A stretch of DNA of 64,000 nt, taken from NCBI GenBank assembly GCA_964291265.2, contig OZ219747.1, forward strand, positions 2,048,001 to 2,112,000, in the 5' to 3' direction. Numbering within the stretch: the first letter of the stretch is position 1; the number at the start of each line of letters is the position of its first letter. The position numbers and the translations under genes are program-made. The stretch comes from Alphaproteobacteria bacterium. GTDB lineage: Bacteria > Pseudomonadota > Alphaproteobacteria > SP197. Shown here one piece after another: positions 42,122-54,933 of the stretch. A model generated the notes under the pieces. It was not told where the DNA came from, did not search any database, and saw only the letters and a program-made list of their open reading frames with translations.

Positions 42122-43615
42122 ATGGCGATCGACGAGGACACGCGGGCGACGATCGTGCGGCTGTCGCGGGCCGAGGGCTGGGCTGTGGGGACGATTGCCC
42201 GGCATCTCGGCGTGCACCACGGCACGGTGACGCGGGCGCTCAAGGCGTCGGGGCAGGAGCGGCGGCCGCGGGCCAAGCTCATCGACCCCTTCGTTGCCTT
42301 CCTCGGGGAGCGTCTTGAGGCGTCGCCGGACCTTCCGGCCAGCACGCTCTGGCGACAGGTCGTGGCTCTGGGCTACCGCGGCGGCGAGGATCACTTCCGT
42401 CACGACCTGCGCCGCCTCGGGCTGAGGCCGGTGAAGAGGCCCGAGCCGTCGCTGCGGCTGAGCTTCCTTCCGGGCGAGCAGGCGCAGGTTGACTGGGCCG
42501 AGTTCGGGAAGGTCCGCATCGGCCGGGCGGAGCGCAGGCTCATGGGGCTTCTCGTCACCCTCAGCTACTCGCGCCAGACTGTCCTGAGCCTGTTCCACGA
42601 CGCGCGGATGGCCAGCTTCCTGCAAGGCCATGTCGAGGCTTTCGCGGCATTCGGGGGTGTGCCGCGGAGGCTTCTGTACGACAACCTGAAGAGTGCCGTG
42701 GTGACGCGCCGCGGCAAGGCGGTCACCTATCATCCGATGCTGCTCGGCCTTGCGGCCCACTATGCCTTCGAACCGAGCGCCGCCTGGCCCAGGAGCCCGC
42801 AGGAGAAGGGCCGCGTGGAACGCCGTGTGCGCTTCGCGCGCACCGGGTTCTTCGCCGGGCGCGACATCACGGTCCCGCTCGGCGAGCTCAACGCCGCAGT
42901 TCGGGAGTGGTGCTTCGGCGCCGCCGCGGAGCGGCCCTGGCCGGACGACGACAGTCTCCTGGTGCGGGACGCCTTCGCCCGGGAGAGGGAGCACCTGATC
43001 GTCCTTCCCGTCGACCCCTTCCCGCATCACGAGGTCCGCCCGGTGCGCATCGACAAGACCTGCCACGCCCGCTTCGACACCAACGACTACAGCGTTCCGG
43101 GTAGCTTCTCCAAGGCCCTGCTGACGCTGGTCGCCGACCGCGACGAGGTCCGCATCCTCGACGGCGCCGACGAGGTCGCGCGCCACCGACGCTCCTACGA
43201 CAGGAAGCAGGCCGTCACCGATCCGGAGCATGCCAGGGCGATCGCCGCGGGCAAGCGGCGGGCCCGCTCCATGAGCGTCCGCGACCGGGTCCTGCGCACC
43301 GTGCCGCGGGCCGAGGAGATGCTGGCGCGCGCCGGGACCAACGGGCGCAACGTGGCCTCCTGCGCCCGGATGCTGGAGACGCTTCTCAACGCGCACGGCG
43401 CCGACGCTCTCGACCGGGCTGTCGCCACGGCGCTGGAGCGCGGCTCGTGCCACCCCGAAACCGTGCGCGTCATCATCGAGGAGCGCCGCCGGGAGCAGGG
43501 CCTGCCGCCCCTCAGCATCGCCGACGACGGCCGCGGCGGCCGTGGCACGACGCCGCGGGGGACCGCTCTCGACGCCTACGACAGGCCCGAAGCCAGCGCC
43601 AGGAACAAGACATGA
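42122..43615 (+). CDS. istA: IS21 family transposase IstA
   Basis: HTH N-terminus; DDE residues in QVDWA, YDNLKSAV, EKGRVER; GGAG SD. Confidence 0.93.
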   Translation: MAIDEDTRATIVRLSRAEGWAVGTIARHLGVHHGTVTRALKASGQERRPRAKLIDPFVAFLGERLEASPDLPASTLWRQVVALGYRGGEDHFRHDLRRLGLRPVKRPEPSLRLSFLPGEQAQVDWAEFGKVRIGRAERRLMGLLVTLSYSRQTVLSLFHDARMASFLQGHVEAFAAFGGVPRRLLYDNLKSAVVTRRGKAVTYHPMLLGLAAHYAFEPSAAWPRSPQEKGRVERRVRFARTGFFAGRDITVPLGELNAAVREWCFGAAAERPWPDDDSLLVRDAFAREREHLIVLPVDPFPHHEVRPVRIDKTCHARFDTNDYSVPGSFSKALLTLVADRDEVRILDGADEVARHRRSYDRKQAVTDPEHARAIAAGKRRARSMSVRDRVLRTVPRAEEMLARAGTNGRNVASCARMLETLLNAHGADALDRAVATALERGSCHPETVRVIIEERRREQGLPPLSIADDGRGGRGTTPRGTALDAYDRPEASARNKT

Positions 43616-44313
43616 GCGAGCTCAGGGAGCGTGCCCGGGCGCTCGGCCTCCACGGGCTCGTCGAACGCTGGGACGAGGTCGCCGGGACCGCATGGATCGA
43701 GGAGGTGGTCAGCGGCGAGGAACAGGCCCGCAGGGCCCGCAGCCACGAGCGCCGCCGCGCCGCGGCGCGGCTGCCCGCCTTCAAGCCCCTGGCGGACTTC
43801 GACTGGACATGGCCGCGCGACATCAGCCGGGCTCATGTCGAAGCGCTCCTCGGCCTCGGCTTCGTCGACCGTGCGGACAACGCCGTGCTCGTCGGCGGGC
43901 AGGGCACCGGAAAGACCATGATCGCCGCCAACGTGGCGCACCAGGCCCTGCTGCACGGCCACACCGTCCGCTTCGAGAAGGCGCCGGAACTGCTCGAGGC
44001 ACTCGCCGAGACCGTCTCGCGCAGCGAGCTGCGCCGCCGCCTCGCGATCCTCGCCAGGCCCCGCCTGCTCATCCTCGACGAAATCGGCTACGTGACCCTC
44101 GAAAGCCACCATGCCGACATCCTCTACGCCATCGTCTCGCGGCGCTATCAGCGCCGCTCGACCATGGTCACGACAAGCCTCGCCTTCGCCCAGTGGGACC
44201 GCGTCTTCCCCAGCGCCTCCGGCATCGCCGGCACCGTCGACCGGCTCATGCACGACGCAACCCTCATCTCCATCGACAGCGACTCCTGGCGGCTCAGGCG
44301 TGAAACCGGATAA
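43612..44313 (+). CDS. istB: IS21 family ATP-binding helper IstB
   Basis: ATGA overlap with istA; DFDWTW, GGQGTGKT, LILDEIGY, VDRLMH. Confidence 0.92.
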   Translation: MSELRERARALGLHGLVERWDEVAGTAWIEEVVSGEEQARRARSHERRRAAARLPAFKPLADFDWTWPRDISRAHVEALLGLGFVDRADNAVLVGGQGTGKTMIAANVAHQALLHGHTVRFEKAPELLEALAETVSRSELRRRLAILARPRLLILDEIGYVTLESHHADILYAIVSRRYQRRSTMVTTSLAFAQWDRVFPSASGIAGTVDRLMHDATLISIDSDSWRLRRETG

Positions 44314-45193
44314 ACCCCGCCGCGTCGACTTCGACGCCGTCAAGCGCATGCCGTTCGAACGCATCGCCGCCGACTGGGGATACGTCCGCGACGAACAGGC
44401 CTCGACACGCGCCAACCCCGTCCTGTGCGCACCCGGCCTGCCGAAGCTCGTCACGAAGTGCCTCAACAACGGACACTGGGTCTACTTCAACACCCAGAAC
44501 GATGAAGACAACGGAACCGTCATCGACTTCATGCTCAACCGCGGACTGGCCTTCGCCGACATCTGCACCCGCTTCGCAGCACCCGACGCCGCGCCACGCG
44601 ACTTCCGCAGCCTCTGGGCCGCGGCAACGCCCGATGCGGCCCCGGACTGGCTCACCGGGCGCGGCATCCTCCCAGAGACCCTCGACACCTGCCGCCCCCT
44701 GGTCCGCCGCGACCACAACGGACGCGTCCTCTTCGCCCATCGCAACAGGAAGCGAAAGCTCACCGGCTTCGAGATCGGTCCCCCCGACGGACCGAAACGC
44801 TTCGCCACCGGTGGAACCCGAAGCCTGTTCGCCGTCCGCGCCGGAACCGCCGCGGACCTCGAGGCCCTCGTCATCACCGAAAGCGCCGTCGACGCCCTCA
44901 GCCTGGCCCAGATCGACCAATGTCCCCCCAGCCACGCCTTCCTCTCCACCGCCGGGGCACCCTCGCGAAGACAGCACGAACAGATCAGCCTCGCCGCAAG
45001 CAGCCTGCCCAACGTCAGGACCATCGTCCTCGCCCAGGACCACGACGAGGCCGGAGAGCGACAGGCCGAAACCCTGCGCAAAAAGATGAAGCTCCCCTCC
45101 CACGTCTCGTTCCACAGACGCAGACCGCCGGAAAACGCCGACTGGAACGACGTCGTCAACGCCAGGACCAAAGAACCACAAGCGAGATCATGA
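44300..45193 (+). CDS. DUF3991/Toprim-domain primase-like protein
   Basis: GTG start overlapping istB; DNGTVIDF, LTGRGI, ITESAVDALS, AQDHDEAG (DxD), DWND. Confidence 0.75.
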   Translation: MKPDKPRRVDFDAVKRMPFERIAADWGYVRDEQASTRANPVLCAPGLPKLVTKCLNNGHWVYFNTQNDEDNGTVIDFMLNRGLAFADICTRFAAPDAAPRDFRSLWAAATPDAAPDWLTGRGILPETLDTCRPLVRRDHNGRVLFAHRNRKRKLTGFEIGPPDGPKRFATGGTRSLFAVRAGTAADLEALVITESAVDALSLAQIDQCPPSHAFLSTAGAPSRRQHEQISLAASSLPNVRTIVLAQDHDEAGERQAETLRKKMKLPSHVSFHRRRPPENADWNDVVNARTKEPQARS

Positions 45194-45510
45194 CCACGTC
45201 CGTCACAAGGAGACCACTCATGCCCCTCACGCCCGCCGAAAAGCAGCGGCGATACCGGGAACGGCGCAAGGCCGGCATCCCTCCCGTCCACACCCCAAAG
45301 CACCGTGACCGGCGCTCGCGACCGCAACGCTGGAACGACGCCGTGGCCGAACTGCGCTCCCTGCAGGACGAATGGCGTGACCACCTCGACAGCATCCCCG
45401 AAAGCCTCCGTGACACGCCTTACGGAGAACGCCTGCAGAGCGTCGCCGATGCCGACATCGAGGCCCTCGAGGACATCGAACCGCCACGCGGCTACGGAAG
45501 GGATACGTGA
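45190..45510 (+). CDS. Small hypothetical protein (basic N-terminus, acidic C-terminus)
   Basis: ATGA overlap with the Toprim gene; alternative ATG 45220 with AGGAG SD; TPAEKQRRYRERR...RSRPQRW...PPRGYGRD. Confidence 0.65.
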   Translation: MTTSVTRRPLMPLTPAEKQRRYRERRKAGIPPVHTPKHRDRRSRPQRWNDAVAELRSLQDEWRDHLDSIPESLRDTPYGERLQSVADADIEALEDIEPPRGYGRDT

Positions 45511-46104
45511 TCCCGCAAGACCCTTGAACGCGGTCACGCGTTACCATCCAGGAATGAGAACGTCTCACCCCGACGCGCCGCTCAGCCTCCCCGGGAAACT
45601 CCCGGGCCGTCCAAACGACACCGCATCACGAGACTGCCGCAGCCTCTGAGCCGCAGCGACGCCCGATCCGCCGCCGGGCTGGCTCACAGGTCGCAGCATC
45701 CGCCCGAAAACACTCAACGCCTGCCGCACCCTGCAGGACGAATGGCGTGACCGCCTCGACAGCATCCCCGAAAGCCTCCGTGACACGCCTTACGGAGAAC
45801 GCCTGCAGAGCGTCGCCGATGCCGACATCGAGGCCCTCGAGGACATCGAACCGCCACGCGGCTACGGAAGGGATACGTGATCCCGCAAGACCCTTGAACG
45901 CGGTCACGCGTTACCATCCAGGAATGAGAACGTCTCACCCCGACGCGCCTCTCAGCCTCCCCGGGAAACCCCCGGGCCGTCCAAACGACACCACATCACG
46001 AGACTGCCGCAGCCGCTGAGCCGCAGCAACGCCCGATCCGCCGCCGGACTGACTCACAGGTCGCAGCATCCGCCCGAAAACACTCGACGCCTGCCGCACC
46101 CTGC
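45361..46104 (+). repeat. Tandem duplication, 370-bp unit
   Basis: 45361 matches 45731 (CTGCAGGACGAATGGCGTGACC); 45721 matches 46091 (CTGCCGCACCCTGC); few mismatches. Confidence 0.9.
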
Positions 46105-46682
46105 GCCGCCGCAACCGCAACGCACGCAGCCTCTTCGCCCAGCGAACAGAAACCGTAAGCTCTCCAGCCTCGAGATCGTCCCGCCCGACGAACCACGACG
46201 AGGCCGGAGAACGCCAGAACAAGACCCCGCGCAAAAGCCTGAAGCTCCCCTCCCACATCACGTTCCACAAACGCCGACCGAAACGACATCGTCACAACGT
46301 CAACGTCAACGCAAGACCAATGGGATCCAACAATAGGCAGAAAACAAAGACCGGGCGGACCTTCGTCCAATGCCGCACGTTCTCCTGTCGTGGTCACCCA
46401 CTCACACGATCAGCGCCCAAAAGAGCGGTTCTCCGCCAATATCCCGCCGTTCTAAATCGCCGCCGACACGTCAAGGGCAACGCTCCGGAGACCTTCGCTA
46501 TCCTCGACAGCATCAATTGGCAAAAAGACGCCACCGGCCACTTCACGGAGCCGTTCGACAAGGCGCACGGTCGACTGGAGCAGCGTTCGATCAGCGTCCT
46601 CGTCCCGTTGGACGGTCTGATCAACTATCCGGGCGTCCGTCAGGTCGCCCGCATCACCCGCTATCGGGAGCCGTGGAAGAAA

Positions 46683-46850
46683 GGCTCCGGCGATGCCGGG
46701 AAGGAAGGCTCCGGCGATGCCGGGAAGGAAGGCCCCGGCGATGCCGGGAAGGAAGGCTCCGGCGATGCCGGGAAGGAAGGCTCCGGCGATGCCGGGAAGA
46801 AAGGCCCCGGCGATGCCGGGAAGAAAGGCTCCGGCGATGCCGGGAAGCAA
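46683..46850 (+). repeat. In-frame 24-bp VNTR x7 (G[S/P]GDAGK[E/K/Q])
   Basis: GGCTCCGGCGATGCCGGGAAGGAA units, contiguous, inside the ISAs1 transposase 3' segment. Confidence 0.95.
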
Positions 46851-47318
46851 GAAGAGAAGGATTACACGGAAACCGATTACATCATCACCTCTCTCGATAC
46901 GGGGGCCACGTCGCCGGAAGAGTTGCTGCGACTGAACCGCCGCCACTGGGCCGTGGAAAATCTGAACCATCGACAAAGGGATTGCGTCTTCGGCGAAGAC
47001 GCCTGCCTGACCCGCACCGACAACGGCCCGGCGAACCGGGCCAGCCTCAACAACATCGCGCTCGCGGTGATCTTCGCCAACCGCCGCGAGGCCGAAAGCC
47101 TCGCCGAAACCCGGCGCCGCCTACAACTGGACCGTCGCGAGGCCATCAACGCCCTGACCCGGCCCTGAGACGCCTTGAGCGTCCGGGGACCCCGGAACGC
47201 TGCTAGACCGAAGTTCCGGACGTTTTCCAGCTGGAAGTCGCGTCAAGTCGTTGATCTTGCGCGGTTTATCGGGTTTGACGGACTTCACAACGTACCCATG
47301 TACGGATGCATTTTGTGC

Positions 47319-47347
47319 TTGACACACGGCAGTGCCGTGCCTATGTA
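47319..47347 (+). promoter_or_regulatory. Putative sigma70 promoter of IS1634 transposase with palindromic spacer
   Basis: TTGACA-17 bp-TATGTA; the spacer contains CACGGCA-G-TGCCGTG. Confidence 0.5.
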
Positions 47348-48791
47348 CAGTAGCCATGTACATCGAAGCCGTCCCCAACCGCTCCTCGCCGCCCGCCATC
47401 CTGCTCCGCGAGTCCTATCGCGAAAACGGAAAGGTCAAGAAGCGCACCATCGCCAACCTCTCCAAGTAGTCCCCCACCCTCGTCGAGGGATTGCGCATCC
47501 TCCTCAAGGGAGGAACAGCAGTCCGACATCTCGACGATGCCTTCGACATCGTCCGCTCCCTTCCCCACGGGCATGTCGCCGCAGTGCTGGGAACCCTGAA
47601 GAAGCTGGGACTGGACAGGCTGATCGACCCGAAGCCCTCGGCACGGCGCGATCAGGTCCTGGCCATGATCGTGGCACGCATCCTCGAGCCCGCCTCGAAG
47701 CTGGCCACGGCCAGGGGGCTGGCCGAGGCCACGGCGGTCAGCACCCTGGGCGAGGTCCTCGATGCGGAGATGGACGAGGACGCCCTCTATGGCGCCATGG
47801 ACTGGCTCCTGGAGCGTCAGGAGAGGATCGAGCGGTCCCTGGCGAAGCGGCGCCTCGAAGAGGGCTGCCTGGTGCTCTATGACCTGACCTCGGTATGGAT
47901 GGAGGGGAGAGCGTGTCCCCTGGCAAGGAGGGGTCATTCCCGGGATGGCAAGAAGGGCAAGCTGCAGATCGAGTTCGGCCTTCTGTGCGATCGGGACGGC
48001 TGTCCAGTGTCGGTGGAAGTGTTCCCCGGCAACACGGCGGACCCCGGGACGGTGGCATCACAGATCACCACGCTGCAGGAGCGCTTCTCCCTGGCGAAGG
48101 TGGTGCTGGTGGGAGACCGGGGGATGCTGACCGAGGCGCGCATACGCGAGGAGGTGAAGCCTGCGGGCCTGGACTGGATCAGCGCCTTGAGGGGACCGGC
48201 CATCCGCGCCCTTGTGGAGGCCGGCGACGTCGAGATGTCGCTCTTCGACGAGAGGGACCTGGTGGAGATCACCAGCGATGCGTATCCCGGCGAACGCCTC
48301 ATGGTCTGCCGCAACCCCCTGCTGGCCGAGGACCGGGCCCGCAAGCGCCAGGAGCTGCTCGAGGCCACCGAGGCCCTGCTTGAACCGATCGCCGCAGCGA
48401 CACGGCGCGACAAGCGCCGTCTCAAGGGTGCCGACAAGATCGGGGAGCGGGTCGGCAAGGTCATCGGTAAATACAAGATGGCGAGTAACTACTCACCCCC
48501 TACTGATGACGGATCGTTTTTCCTGACGGGTTCGGATCCGGCATTGTCTCTTGCCGCCTTCACTTGCTCGCTTCCGATGATCGGATGTGCGTGTTCCGAC
48601 TGACAAGAAGCGGATCGATCTTCGTCTTCAGCTCCACGTTCCGGCCTTATATGGCCAGGTTTTGTCCCCGTGATGATGCAATCATCCACAGCGGTTGGCT
48701 GCCTTTCCAATCCTCTGGAGATATGCGCTTGACATTGTAGGAGGGGCACTCTACATGCAGGCCATCGGGGCGGTTTGCGTCGGAGATATTG

Positions 48792-49466
48792 ATGGCGGCA
48801 TGGTATGGATCGAAGGCGACGACGGGTCTGAGCCAGGCGATCGTCGCGGCCATGCCGCCGCATGACGTGTACATCGAGGCGTTCCTTGGGGGCGGCGCGA
48901 TCATGAAGCGCAAGCCACCGGCGCTACGCAGCATCGGCATTGACCTCAACCGCCGGGCGATCGACACCTTCCGCTGTGACTATCCGGTGGAGCTTCACCA
49001 AGGCTGCGCCCTGCGTTTTCTCGAGACCTTCGCCTTCCAGGGCCGCGAGCTGGTCTACTGCGACCCGCCTTACGTGCAGTCGACGCGCCGGTCGCAGCGC
49101 CGCTACCGCTTCGACTGCACGGACGATGACCATGTTGCGCTCCTCGACATCCTGACGTCGCTGCCCTGCCAGGTGATGATCTCCGGCTATCCCTCGCGGC
49201 TCTACGACACGCACCTCGCCGGCTGGCGCTCGGCCGAGGTCCAGGTCAACAACCAGGCCTGCGTTGTCACCGAGAAGCTGTGGTTCAACTTCGCACCGGG
49301 CCGACCGCACTGGCATACGTGTGCGGGCAGGAACTCGATCGACCGCCAGCGCATCAAGCGCCTCGCAGAGAGCTGGGCGCGGCGCTACCGGACGATGCCC
49401 GAAGGCGAGCGGCTCGCCGTGCTGGCGGCAGTCATGGCGGTGGAGGCGTCGTCATGGCGAGCGTGA
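48792..49466 (+). CDS. Compact Dam-like DNA adenine methyltransferase
   Basis: YGSK, motif I IEAFLGGGA, motif IV YCDPPY, VMISGY, EKLWFN; GGAG SD; its 3' end overlaps the transposase start. Confidence 0.85.
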   Translation: MAAWYGSKATTGLSQAIVAAMPPHDVYIEAFLGGGAIMKRKPPALRSIGIDLNRRAIDTFRCDYPVELHQGCALRFLETFAFQGRELVYCDPPYVQSTRRSQRRYRFDCTDDDHVALLDILTSLPCQVMISGYPSRLYDTHLAGWRSAEVQVNNQACVVTEKLWFNFAPGRPHWHTCAGRNSIDRQRIKRLAESWARRYRTMPEGERLAVLAAVMAVEASSWRA

Positions 49467-50147
49467 ACGGCACGTCTGTGCGCCAGGAGGCCGACATCTT
49501 CCAGAAGCAGTTCCAGGATCTCCGCAAGCAGGGCAAGGTCAACCAGGAGTGCGAGGAGCTCTTCCGCGGCATGCTGATGCTGATAAAGCTGTTGCTGACC
49601 GTGCTCATGGAGAAGATCACACGTAAGACAAGCCGGAACTCCGGTCTGCCGCCATCGCAGACTGACAAGGACGAGAGCGCGAGGCGCACCGGGAGCCACG
49701 GCAAGGGCCCGAAGCCGAACCAGCAGACGGGCGACAACCTGCGCACGACCACCGTCGAGGAGACGATCGTCGTTGATGCCTGCGACGCCTGCGGCGCCGA
49801 CCTCCACGACGTTGACCCCGTCGACCGGGAGTGCCGCGTCCTCTACGACATCGTGTTCGAAGTCGTCGAGCGCCGCGTCGAAGCCGAGATCAAGGAATGT
49901 CCGAAGTGCCGGGCCCGGACCAAGGGCCGGTTCCCAGACAACATGCCGGGCCCCCTGCAGTACGGCGTCAGCATCCAGGCCCTCGTCATCAACCTGCTGA
50001 TCGCCCAGATGCTGTCCCTGCGTCGTGCCGTCTCGCTGTAAGCGTTCGGCCGTTCGGTGATGGCTGATTTTGGTTGGTTTGGGTCTTGCTGACTATCGTC
50101 TGAGAAAGTGCTGGTAAACTCGTTTGGTCTCGATTATGGTCGAGGCC

Positions 50148-52580
50148 ATGAAGACTTTTGCCGAGACGCGCGGAGCGACACAGCAGCTGACGGGAGGTGG
50201 TGACGGCCTATGTCGGGCGTCAGTGGCCTTGTCATGCGAGGCGCCTGACTGGCGTGCGCTCTATGAGGCGGAGCGGGTTCGTGCGGATGCGGCGGAAGCG
50301 CGTATGCGGTGTGCCAGGCGAACTGGCGGAAGGTAGGGGGTGAAAGTCCCCTGGAACGAAGGAGTAACCAAACCACGTTTCTCCGCGAGCCGTGCGTCGG
50401 TTCCCGCGAGGGGGCAGGCGAAGCGTCGGTAGCGGTACGGATGGGCAGGGCTAATGAGCACCGAAAAAGCTATCATCCGGGGTGCCGAGGCTTTCGCATT
50501 GGTCGAAGGCAACATCGCAGGCATCGATTTGGTGAGATGTCGGCGAGCCCCGCGGTGTCAGAGAACCCATGCACGTCCGCACGCCTTCTGTTGGGACCCT
50601 GGGAGATCTTCAAACCGTCCCGCCGGTTGTGGCGGGACCGCATGGGGAAGGAGAAAACCGAAGCCTATGATGTACGGTTTGAAGAAGTCGGATGAGGCCG
50701 TAGTACCTGTGAAGGCGGCGAACAAGGAAGCGTTAGCTTCTGCGGAGTCGCTGGAGGAAAGGGCCTCAACCAAGGGGAATCCGGGACGCTAAAGCACGCA
50801 CCGAACGCAGTGTCGGGCAAGCGTGCCACAGGCGGCGGATCGGATACGGGAAGCCGCAGGCTAGTCCAGTGGTTTGCCGTCCAGTACCCGAGGTAGGAGC
50901 CGGATGGATTAACGTCCACGTCCGGATCTGCGCGGGGGGTGCGCAGCAATGCGCATCCCTACCGCGTCTGACCTGCGCCGTGCGAAGAATTCTGCCCGTG
51001 CCCGTGCGGGCACATTCAAGTTTCATCTCGACCGCACTCGTGATCAGCTCAAGGAGGCTCGCCGGGAGGTGAAGCGTGGACAGGCCCGAGCGGAGGCGCT
51101 GGAGCAGGAAAGGGACGCTCTGAAGCTCAAGAACGCTGAACAGGCGAGCGAGCTGAGGAATCTCCGCGGGACGCGTGCCAAGCACGCGACGGCGCGCTTC
51201 GGGTCGAAGAGCGAGAAACGGAAGAAGAAGGAAGGCACCGGGAACAAGCGGGGTCAGCAACCCGGCAAGAGCGGCCACGGGCGCACTCCGCGTCCGAAGC
51301 TCAAGGAGAAGCACGAACGCCATGATCCACCGGCATCGCAGCGCACGTGCCCGTGTTGCGGCGAGCCCTATGTGGCCAACGGCAGCCACGAGACCTCGAT
51401 CATGGAGGTCCATGTCAAGGCTCATATCCGGCGGATTGAACGTGGGCGTTGGCGCCGTGGTTGTCAGTGTTCGTCGGCGCCTGCGGAGATCATCGCGCCG
51501 CCACCTTTGCGCTTGCTTGCGAATACCCCCTTCGGCATCAGTGTCTGGGAATGCGTGCTCTATGAGCGCTTCGCCTGCTTGCGTCCCCTGCGCCGGGTCT
51601 CGCGATGGCTGGAAGACCAGGGACTGCCGATGGCGCCGGGAACGATCGCTGGCGGCATGAAGAAGATGACGCCGATGTTCGCGCCTCTCGCTCAGGCCAT
51701 CCTCGATCATCAGAACCGGCTGACGGTGCGCCACGGCGACGAGACCAGCTGGCGCATCCAGTCCCTCAAGGCCTCGGGGCGCTCGCAGAAGGCCTGGCTG
51801 TGGACCGCGGTCAGCGCCGACTCCGTCTTCTTCCTTATCGACCCGTCACGCAGCACCCGGGTGGCCATGGTGCTGTTCGCCTCCACCGAAGGTGTCGTCT
51901 TCCTTGTTTGCGACCGCTACGTGGTCTACAGGAAACTGGAGCGTGAGCTTGATGGCAAGGTGATCCTCTGCCTTTGCTGGGCGCACTCCAGGCGCGATGT
52001 GATCGAGGCTGCGGCAGGCCAAGAGGGGCTGGAAGAGTGGTGCGACAAGTGGCTCGACAGGATCGCGCTGATCTACACACTGAATGGGCAACGGCTGAAG
52101 CACTACGATCCCGCACGCAAGCGTCAGTCAGCGAGGTTCAATGCCCTGCAGAAGGACCTTCGTGCGGCTGTCGAGGCGCTGTTCAGGCAGGCTCAGGAGG
52201 AACTCGACGCCTTGCCCGAGGGTGCACGCGAAGCGAAGCCCTTGCGTTCCCTGATCCGTCACCGCGAGGGACTGTGCGTCTTTGTCGACCATCCCCAGGT
52301 GCCCATGGACAACAACTTTGCCGAGAGAGCCCTCCGGGGTGCGGTGACCGCGAGAAAGCTGAGCTTCGGCTCCGACAGCGAGGAAGGCGCCGCCTTCACC
52401 GCCATCATGTACTCGGTCATCGGCACCCTTGCCATGAACAACATCAATGTTCGGCGCTGGCTTCATGAGTGGCTTGAGGCCTGCGCGCAGAACGGCGGCA
52501 AGCCGCCGGATGACCTCGACCCGTGGCTGCCATGGTCGATGCCCCCGGAGCGTCGAAGGGACCTCATGGAACCGGGGTGA
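50148..52580 (+). CDS. IS66 transposase B, two exons (50148-50308 and 50969-52580)
   Basis: Spliced junction reads AEARMR/DLRRAK in frame; FGSKSEK, CPCCG, HGDETSW, VCDRY, LCWAHSRR, DNNFAERALR. Confidence 0.8.
50309..50968 (+). ncRNA. ORF-less group II intron (IIB-like), 660 nt
   Basis: 5' GTGTG; domain V GAGCCGGATG...CACGTCCGGATC (50897-50928); domain VI stem with GCAA loop and bulged A at 50961; EBS1-like CGCAT (50495-50499) complementary to the exon end ATGCG. Confidence 0.88.
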
Positions 52581-52870
52581 TCGAGTGCCGTTACGACGGC
52601 CGTGACTTCACCGCGCACGAGATGGCGCTGTTGCGCTCCCTGATCACCCAGCACCCCACCCGTGCGGCCATCGCCCGCGCCTTCTGCCGCGAGACCGGCT
52701 GATACAAGCCCGACGGGGCCTCAAGAACATGATGGCGAATGTCGCCTTTCTGGCCATGCACCGCGACGGCCTCATCACCCTGCCGCCACCCCAACGACGA
52801 GCAACCCGACCCGGACCCATCGTCTTCGGACCCAACAGCGAACCGCCACGTGGTGCGCCTCCCAAACGCA
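52577..52870 (+). pseudogene. Truncated N-terminus of an IS66-associated DUF4338-type protein
   Basis: GTGA overlap; RYDGRDFTAHEMALLRSLI...R..IARAFC...G*YKPDG, then a frameshift, then LAMHRDGLITLPPP. Confidence 0.6.
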
Positions 52871-54933
52871 TCCTCAACCGGTGAATATCACCAACAATCA
52901 CCGCGTGGCCGAACGCTTACGTCTCGCTCGTGCACGCGATCTCCGGCATCAAGCTCTCCGAGGCGACCTGCCTCGGCTATGTCCGGCGCTTTCACGATGC
53001 CCTCGCATCATGGGAGGAGGCCGCCGTGGCCCATCTCCTGCAACAACCGGCCCTGCATGTCGACGAGACCGGCTTCCGGGTCGCCGGCAAGACCCAATGG
53101 CTCCATGTCGTCACCGACGGCACCCTGACGTGCAAGTTCCCGCACCCCAAGCGCGGCCGGGAGGCGATCGAAGAGATCGGCATCATCCCGCGCTACAAGG
53201 GCGTCCTGATCCACGACTGCTGGGCTGCCTACATGGGCTACGATCAATGCCGCCACCAACTGTGCGGCAGCCATCTCCTGCGCGAACTGACCTTCGTCGT
53301 CGAGTCCAACGGCTACCGCTGGGCGCGACTGATGAAAAGCCTGCTGCGCGAGGTCTCCCGCAGGGTCAACAAGAGCGCATCCAAGACCTTGAACGAGGCC
53401 GACCGCCGGGCCGTGCGCAAGCGCTACCGCACCATCCTCACCCAGGGCGCCAAGGAACTGCCCGACATCCCGCCACGGACGAAAGGAAAACGTGGACGCA
53501 TCGCAAAGTCCGACGCGCACAACCTGCATGAACGTCTCGTGAAACACGAGAAGTCCGTCCTGCGCTTCATGAAGGACCCCAACGTCAGTTTCACCAACAA
53601 TACCGGAGAGCAGAAGATCAGGATGACAAAGGTCAAGATCAAGGTGTCCGGATGTTTCCGCACCATGCCCCACGCCAAAGCATGGTGCCGAGGCTCAAGC
53701 TACCTCACCACCATGGACGCACTCGGCTACAACCCTCACGTCGCCATCCACATCGCCCTCGACGGAAAGGCCGTAGACATCCTCAACCAACACTACGGAC
53801 AACCAGACCCTAACAAGGGGTGAGTAGTTACGATGGCGAAGCACTTCACGTGGTCCATCGACGACGAGGGTGTCTTCACCTATGGGCGCGATGAGGTTGC
53901 CATCGCCGCCGAGGCCAGGCTCGACGGCCTCTACGTGATCCGCACCAGCCTGCCGCAGAGCGAGCTCGACGGTCCCGGCACGGTGCGCGCCTACAAGCGG
54001 CTGAGTTCGGTGGAACGGGCCTTCCGCAGCCTGAAGACCGTGGATCTGAAGGTCCGCCCCGTCTACCACCGCACCGAACCCCGGGTCCGCGCCCATGTCT
54101 TCCTGTGCATGCTCGCCTACTACGTTGAATGGCACATGCGCCAGAGACTGAAGCCCATGCTGTTCGACGACGAGGATGCCGAAGGCGCCGAGGCCCGGCG
54201 GCCGTCCGTCGTGGCGCCGGCAGAAGTCTCGGCGAGCGCCCGGGCCAAGGCGGCAACGAAGAGGACGCCCGGGGGTGATCCGGTGCACAGTTTCCGCACC
54301 CTCCTCGATGATCTCGCGACCATCACCCGCAACACCGTGGCGCCCCGCCTTGCGGGCGCCAAACCCTTCCAGGTCACCACGCGGCCCACGCCGCTCCAGA
54401 GAAGGGCGCTCAAGCTTCTGGGCGTGGAGCCGTAGTGTACTCAGTCAGATGCTTCTGAGATCCATCGAATGTCATTCATATCAGGTACTTGCACTTGATC
54501 GGCGCTGGAACTTCGGGCTAGAACATCAAGAACCAAGCATCCGGGCCGAAAACGCTGCCGGTGTCGCCATGCGGACGGCACTGAAGCCACGGAATCCGTC
54601 CAGGACATCCCGATTCGGCCTCGATTCGTCGGCCTCGCGAAAGATCAGATGGCCGATTCGGGCGCGATTCATCGGCTTCCCGAAAAATCAGCCGTAGCGT
54701 AGGAAAGTCCTGTGCGCCGGATCAGCCTTCCAGCGCTCAGTGGAATGAACCCTTCATGGGGACTTACCCCGGTCCCCTACCGCGACAAGCCCCTGCGAAA
54801 CATGACAGAGACGAGGGAGGTCACATCTGCCCGGCATCCGCTCCCTTCCTTCTCCGGGAGCTGTCGCGGCATTGCGCAAGGGGTCCGGACCGGATATCTG
54901 ATCGCGCAGCCACCCGTATCGGAGCAGCCCACC

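Follow-up and report, generated by a model that had tools for sequence, protein, structure and literature searches.

The window analysed here is a stretch of 64,000 nucleotides of an alphaproteobacterial genome (GenBank assembly GCA_964291265.2, contig OZ219747.1, positions 2,048,001 to 2,112,000). Within it, an insertion sequence (IS) of the IS66 family carries, ahead of its transposase gene tnpC, a gene for a small protein resembling the DNA adenine methyltransferase (MTase) Dam. The span between positions 48485 and 53831 (5,347 bp) had been described in a first-pass annotation as one IS66 element. It does hold an outer IS66 with the MTase gene, but the span is a nested stack of IS66 elements: another IS66, with inverted repeats (IRs) and a target-site duplication (TSD) of its own, has inserted into tnpC at 50037, which rules out a single 5.3-kb element. 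Without the nested insertion the outer IS66 measures 2,456 bp, made up of a 307-bp leader, the MTase gene, tnpC and a further 8 bp. The features of the stack, in window coordinates, are as follows.

48477-48484: left 8-bp target duplication of the outer IS66, GATGGCGA, repeated at 53832-53839
48485-48499, plus strand: left inverted repeat (IRL) of the MTase-carrying IS66, 15 bp, a perfect match to the right one (IRR)
48729-48757, plus strand: predicted sigma70 promoter, TTGACA at 48729-48734, a 17-bp spacer and TACATG at 48752-48757
48736-48740 and 48751-48755: arms of a predicted operator, TGTAG-N10-CTACA, lying over the promoter, from conservation in 60 carriers
48792-49466, plus strand: gene for a Dam-fold protein of the Upf31 family, 224 aa (PF02086)
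49454-50037, plus strand: 5' part of tnpC, with its ATG at 49454 and a 13-bp overlap with the end of the MTase gene
50030-50037 and 52921-52928: 8-bp TSD of the nested IS66, GTCTCGCT
50038-52920, plus strand: nested second IS66, with 14-bp perfect IRs and no MTase gene
52929-53823, plus strand: 3' part of the outer tnpC, with the DDE domain (PF03050)
53817-53831, minus strand: IRR of the outer IS66, 15 bp

Several points of the first-pass annotation were borne out at this level: the perfect 15-bp IRs, here accompanied by the 8-bp TSD, the intact gene of about 224 codons with FLGGG (residue 31) and DPPY (residue 91), the 13-bp overlap with the transposase start and the lack of a restriction gene. 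The leader, the MTase gene and tnpC fill the outer element, so that there is no room for a third open reading frame (ORF) inside its IRs, and in this it differs from type II restriction-modification systems, which have a cognate endonuclease gene. A PADLOC search with the 224-aa protein returned MTase profiles plus one weak match to PD-Lambda-5_B. The terminal IRs begin with GTAA and the target duplication is 8 bp long, as expected of IS66, and the TnpC of an intact copy elsewhere in the genome is an IS66 DDE transposase (NF033517, 251.9 bits against a cut-off of 180; also PF03050). The copy in the window cannot make its own transposase, since its tnpC is interrupted by the nested IS66.

The 224-aa protein is predicted to consist of a catalytic domain without a target recognition domain (TRD; residues ~1-170) and a helical C-terminal domain (~180-221). 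The best fold match of its structure model, whose predicted local distance difference test score (pLDDT) is 75.5 and is low at the N terminus and in the C-terminal domain, is EcoDam (2g1p; Z 17.3, root mean square deviation 2.3 A, 148 residues aligned). Residues 2-168 of the model cover EcoDam residues 7-270, pointing to the loss of about 95 residues, the TRD. As modelled, then, the protein is a Dam catalytic domain minus the TRD, followed by two helices. It shares with the alpha-type N6-adenine MTases (EcoDam, T4Dam, DpnM) the fold, the motif order X-I-IV and DPPY, and differs from them in lacking the TRD and in its extra C-terminal helices. Only 60 residues separate motif I (FLGGG) from motif IV (DPPY), the short segment already remarked upon in the first-pass annotation. 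The score against the Dam family model TIGR00571 is 38.7, below its cut-off of 114.85, and a sequence search of the PDB with a family profile returned only DpnM (E 0.008) plus two repeat-protein matches judged spurious. The S-adenosylmethionine (SAM)-binding and catalytic motifs are intact in the alignment; of the homologs compared, 112 of 120 close ones and 92 of 94 full-length distant ones retain DPPY, and DPPY, ExxLGxG and D51 are near-invariant across members from ISs, plasmids and phages. Ratios of non-synonymous to synonymous substitution rates (0.08-0.30 in 14 pairs, C-terminal domain included) indicate that the whole gene is under purifying selection. Full-length homologs are present on 137 of the 189 plasmid records that matched, and others belong to P2-like phages.

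The MTase-carrying IS66 is a mobile unit. The source genome holds 16 two-ended copies, 15 of them flanked by an exact 8-bp TSD; ten are uninterrupted, and all ten encode proteins of 224 and 492 aa. Two-ended copies with TSDs and intact genes are not a chance observation, and the element is an active, recently spreading IS66 with a single transposase. One copy (G000:C1:104609-109528) sits inverted within another copy of the same element. Insertion sites with a multi-copy flank (7/16, compared with 59/300 random windows) are only suggestive of a targeting of repeats. The same genome harbours a second family of such elements (~2,440 bp), whose MTase and TnpC are ~61% and ~33% identical to those of the first; ten left ends were found, and for eight of them a right end lies within 12 kb. 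Three copies of this second family have a common lesion that cuts the MTase at 133 aa, and two of these are bounded by exact TSDs. Copies with a truncated MTase thus seem to have moved, which suggests that the gene is dispensable in cis, although gene conversion is an alternative source of the common lesion.

A search for MTase-tnpC pairs, proposed in the first-pass annotation, showed the pairing to recur. Among the best 80 of 420 related genome loci (from 17 assemblies titled mostly Alphaproteobacteria or Paracoccaceae) an IS66 tnpC follows the Upf31-like gene in 76, with start-stop overlaps of -1, -4 or -13 nt, and 48 of the 80 have an IR pair plus an exact TSD. In metagenomes (best 80 of 468 loci) tnpC follows the gene in 62, or in 60 of the 68 loci with at least 600 bp of downstream sequence. 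The remaining eight long loci have three IS701-like transposases (assignments that score below the NCBIfam cut-off), one IS4 transposase and four other genes downstream. The IS4 case (L133) is an element with long perfect IRs and a 9-bp TSD that encloses both the Upf31-like gene and the transposase. In the literature searched, no Upf31-like gene was found described as part of an IS, though an entry may exist in ISfinder or REBASE.

The MTase gene had been taken to stand in place of tnpA and tnpB, and here the comparison pointed elsewhere. The window element indeed differs from classic IS66 (tnpA-tnpB-tnpC) in lacking both genes. However, a larger type of carrier, here called type B (3.2-3.6 kb, 52/80 genome loci), retains TnpA and TnpB on the opposite strand, as verified with hidden Markov models for L025 and L061, and the nearest named relatives of the window TnpC (32-36% identity; three examined of 59 records) are annotated as single-ORF IS66. 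The gene is therefore an addition and not a substitute. The single-ORF ISBst12 group resembles the window element in its IRs of GTAAC...-type (GTAACTGCTCAGCA in ISDge4), 8-bp direct repeats, lack of tnpA and tnpB and 450-490-aa transposase, as reported for ISDge4 (PMC12898284); what sets the window element apart is the 224-aa gene with its promoter and operator, placed between IRL and tnpC. A quick tree built from 83 proteins places the IS-type sequences, which were picked as top matches to the query, in one clade (Shimodaira-Hasegawa-like approximate likelihood ratio test, SH-aLRT, 100). The MTases of type-B elements are not monophyletic (approximately unbiased, AU, test, p = 0.015), so that the cassette of promoter plus gene has passed between transposase lineages. 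In four type-B loci (L004, L010, L025, L061) tnpA-tnpB converge on MTase-tnpC from the opposite strand, an unusual layout for IS66.

This distribution bears on the idea that the IS took up the cassette chiefly for the promoter it donates or as neutral cargo, the cassette regulating itself with only an incidental effect on the transposase. The gene is patchy (6/40 relatives and 2/400 genomes of the phylum, with at most seven candidates scored per genome), the annotation of single-ORF relatives of the window TnpC shows no such gene, and the truncated copies appear to have moved, all of which would suit cargo. Purifying selection along the whole gene, the start-stop overlaps and the repeated pairing with IS66, IS4 and IS701-like transposases do not, and we regard this explanation as unlikely. 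Transporter ISs (tIS), as described in PMC9330008, likewise have a non-transposition gene between IS ends; here the gene lies upstream of the transposase gene, overlaps it and recurs across IS families, so that it looks like a control module rather than tIS cargo.

The closest tested relative gives a clue to what such a module might do. Upf31 (upf31.0) of the IncP-1beta plasmids pBP136 and R751 is 42-44% identical to the IS-borne protein (pBP136 Upf31, 224 aa: 43.7% over residues 6-207, E 2e-47), belongs to PF02086 and has every motif in common with it, including the TRD-less core and the C-terminal helical domain, in which W195 here equals Upf31 W198. Upf31 is reported to repress its own promoter, from 4.76 to 0.09 XylE units with a 68-bp promoter fragment, and C-terminal mutants lose repression (Elg et al., 2025, PMC11997246). 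The same study records no GATC methylation or protection, no signal in SMRT (single-molecule real-time) sequencing and, in the absence of the plasmid, no growth cost upon induction. The SMRT test was described as motif finding in strain ER2796 with the expression vector only (PMC11997246); the plasmid repeats would then have been absent, and a methylation site that is rare and bipartite would have been missed. These repeats, CAGCATCG, were proposed as the Upf31 operator (Elg et al., 2025, PMC11997246). The IS-borne gene differs from upf31 in heading a predicted IS operon and overlapping the transposase gene, in its operator core (TAG/CTA instead of TCG/CGA) and in having a single site per element where the plasmids have clusters; no KorB is encoded on the IS.

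A comparable palindrome is found over the predicted promoter of the IS. The window sequence at 48729-48755 reads TTGACA-T-TGTAG-N10-CTACA. In order to examine its conservation, 171 loci were reduced to 149 adjacent to IS66, then to 61 below 90% identity, 60 of which could be anchored on TTGAC[AT] (one of these, L022, is mis-anchored and was kept). Of the 60 carriers, 57, 57 and 59 retain the three bases of the left T-A-G (promoter positions 10-12), and 58, 57 and 59 those of the right C-T-A (positions 23-25), while the 10-bp spacer between the arms is neither conserved nor self-complementary. Pairing about the palindrome axis is 0.70, whereas the 12 other axes give 0.12-0.35. Since the left arm falls within the promoter spacer, its conservation is beyond what the promoter alone would need. 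In the upf31 promoter, CAGCATCG-N10-CGATGCTG stands at the same position and with the same spacing, and the palindrome likewise begins inside TTGACA. Upstream of plasmid and phage homologs the bipartite site occurs in 9 of 15 cases (about five independent lineages), up to five times each, compared with 1.5% in shuffled sequences, and no site was found among these 15 with spacers of 8, 9, 11 or 12 instead of 10. Both types of operator, TAG/CTA and TCG/CGA, retain the T:A pair at positions 10/25. Of seven elements checked, six have TAG-N10-CTA a single time, at the promoter, and one lacks it altogether; none of the seven has an operator at its IRs. A reading of the palindrome as an RNA hairpin was disfavoured, since pairing in the spacer is 0.18-0.42 and the palindrome lies upstream of the predicted transcription start. 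Position -7 is T in 43 of 46 metagenome loci, but in just one of the 13 loci taken from the window's genome, related genomes and records of Alphaproteobacteria. Alphaproteobacteria are reported to lack -7T (PMC8407463), and its scarcity here would fit alphaproteobacterial promoters, though the loci are related.

Some minor observations concern the operators and their proteins. The five proteins with CATCG-N10-CGATG sites (L081, L084, L104, L105 and L107) all begin with [RK]YPGGK, while proteins of the TAG type mostly have a small residue there; the position lies near EcoDam K9, described as contacting the first base pair (PMC4417163), though a single clade is involved and the equivalence is uncertain. 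In phage SEN5 (L082) the P2-like homolog follows a replication gene, near two other methylase genes, and is preceded by degenerate repeats that resemble the operator and fail the pattern. L104, L107 and L181 each have an Upf31-like gene, with the same promoter and palindrome, in front of a gene resembling that for 8-oxoguanine glycosylase, and L104 and L107 have a convergent 7-cyano-7-deazaguanine synthase gene nearby. A consensus scan of the IS gave a sole antisense promoter-like match, pointing outwards near IRL (48577-48606, minus strand), at chance level.

Does the small protein act on the DNA at large? The first-pass annotation had considered restriction shielding and low-specificity methylation, that is, a relaxed-specificity adenine methylase guarding the element, its ends or incoming DNA. 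The missing TRD with its 60 residues between motifs I and IV, the relatives on conjugative plasmids and P2-like phages and the existence of non-specific Dam-like enzymes such as Hia5 (described in PMC3299994) lend some appeal to this. Hia5, Hin1523 and Nma1821 of Mu-like prophages, as far as their published description allows comparison (PMC3299994), are also Dam-related, mobile-element-borne, provided with DPPY and without a restriction partner, but they have 281 aa, keep a divergent TRD region (~80-170) and are proven active and non-specific. Induced Upf31 is described as showing nothing of the kind (PMC11997246). Moreover, none of the seven elements checked has more than one site or any at its IRs, and a gene expressed after insertion could not easily guard incoming DNA. 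Shielding is therefore disfavoured, and we consider it very unlikely.

Taking together the anatomy, mobility and recurrence of the unit, its homology to Upf31 and the conserved palindrome placed over and between the -35 and -10 boxes, we favour, at roughly even confidence, a dimeric autorepressor: a TRD-less protein of the Upf31 family that would damp the coupled transposase through the operator over the predicted promoter. The MTase gene and tnpC would be transcribed as one message and be translationally coupled. The protein may dimerise through its C-terminal helices, bind the palindrome and block the promoter that likely drives both genes, thus exerting negative feedback on the transposase. 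Such repression would act in trans on all copies in the cell and would be lifted when an element enters a naive host, allowing a burst of transposase. The intact SAM and adenine pockets might serve tight binding, either cofactor-dependent or through base flipping, with or without methyl transfer; along these lines, repression independent of methylation has been proposed for EcoDam itself (PMC4417163). Of the mobile epigenetic unit suggested at first, mobility stands and self-regulation is the best reading, but probably as operator-based autorepression and not as a general epigenetic unit.

A number of points weigh against autorepression. The function of the IS-borne members is transferred from a 43% homolog, and the conservation of DPPY exceeds what a purely non-catalytic repressor would seem to need. 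Conservation of the right arm is due in part to something else, since this arm and the -10 box overlap, and the window -10 box matches only 3/6 positions, the forward promoter failing a strict consensus scan. The site is absent in 6 of the 15 non-IS homologs, and three of the nine site-bearers are upf31 alleles. Positions 9/26 covary on raw counts (26 AT, 12 GC, 8 mismatched; Fisher p = 3e-5) but not significantly across four independent pairs (p = 0.5), and once kinship had been counted in this way we dropped covariation as independent proof of the operator.

The conserved catalytic motif leads to a variant in which the protein would be an operator-specific methyltransferase, its dimer reading both half-sites and methylating the invariant adenine, predicted to be -11A in the -10 box of the protein's own promoter. 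Near-invariance of DPPY, ExxLGxG and D51 in IS, plasmid and phage members alike and the T:A pair common to both operator types argue for it, and the SMRT strain without plasmid repeats would have let such a site escape. A precedent would be the IS10 transposase promoter, reported to be governed by hemimethylated GATC (PMC4659465). On the other hand, the tested homolog was methylation-negative as reported (PMC11997246), the model lacks the TRD of Dam, recognition hairpin included, conservation of the A at position 25 would be expected from its role as -11A as well, and the operator clusters, with up to five sites, found upstream of plasmid homologs suit repressor binding equally. We see operator methylation as possible but doubtful, and give no greater credence to its extension, that at least three IS families have a common portable promoter-operator-methylase cassette methylating only its own operator at the -11 adenine. 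If true, the IS would encode an epigenetic switch of its own, independent of the host, which keeps every copy silent in trans and frees the transposase once a new cell is entered or replication has taken place. With autorepression and operator methylation taken together, the cassette is quite probably a transposase regulator.

If so, an IS with its own methylase-fold regulator would represent an unusual form of transposition control, exchanged as a cassette among IS66 lineages, IS4 and IS701-like elements. It would resemble the control of IS10 and IS50 by Dam in that a DNA mark or a protein acts on the transposase promoter; there, however, a host enzyme acts on GATC, and here an IS-encoded regulator would act on a private, predicted 20-bp bipartite palindrome. 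For the Upf31 family the comparison also supplies a concrete consensus of the operator and a candidate adenine as target, and with them the question raised by Elg et al. (2025), whether Upf31 is a methylase and what the IncP-1beta repeats are for, becomes directly testable. It suggests that many of the small proteins annotated as DNA adenine methylases on plasmids, P2-like phages and ISs may be regulators.

The remaining features of the locus are the element into which the MTase-carrying IS66 has inserted and an intron within the nested IS66:

47203-54521, plus strand: host element of the IS1634 family (NF033559 on both halves), with approximate ends taken from other genome copies
47491-48484 and 53840-54435, plus strand: IS1634 transposase gene (NF033559), split by the outer IS66
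50309-50968, plus strand: group II intron without an ORF, 660 nt, in the transposase gene of the nested IS66 (RF02005 at 50343-50567)

The intron junction was placed from an intron-less copy (G000:C2:3949635). At least eight near-identical full-length copies of the nested IS66 in the genome carry the intron and others are without it; some hold, instead, a different and larger insertion further downstream. Splicing of the intron would be needed for the nested IS66 to produce its transposase. The stack adjoins another mobile cluster (43447-47168), which holds an IstB-like ATPase, a Toprim protein that has partial repeats spaced 370 bp apart and a DDE fragment containing a tandem repeat of 24 nt.

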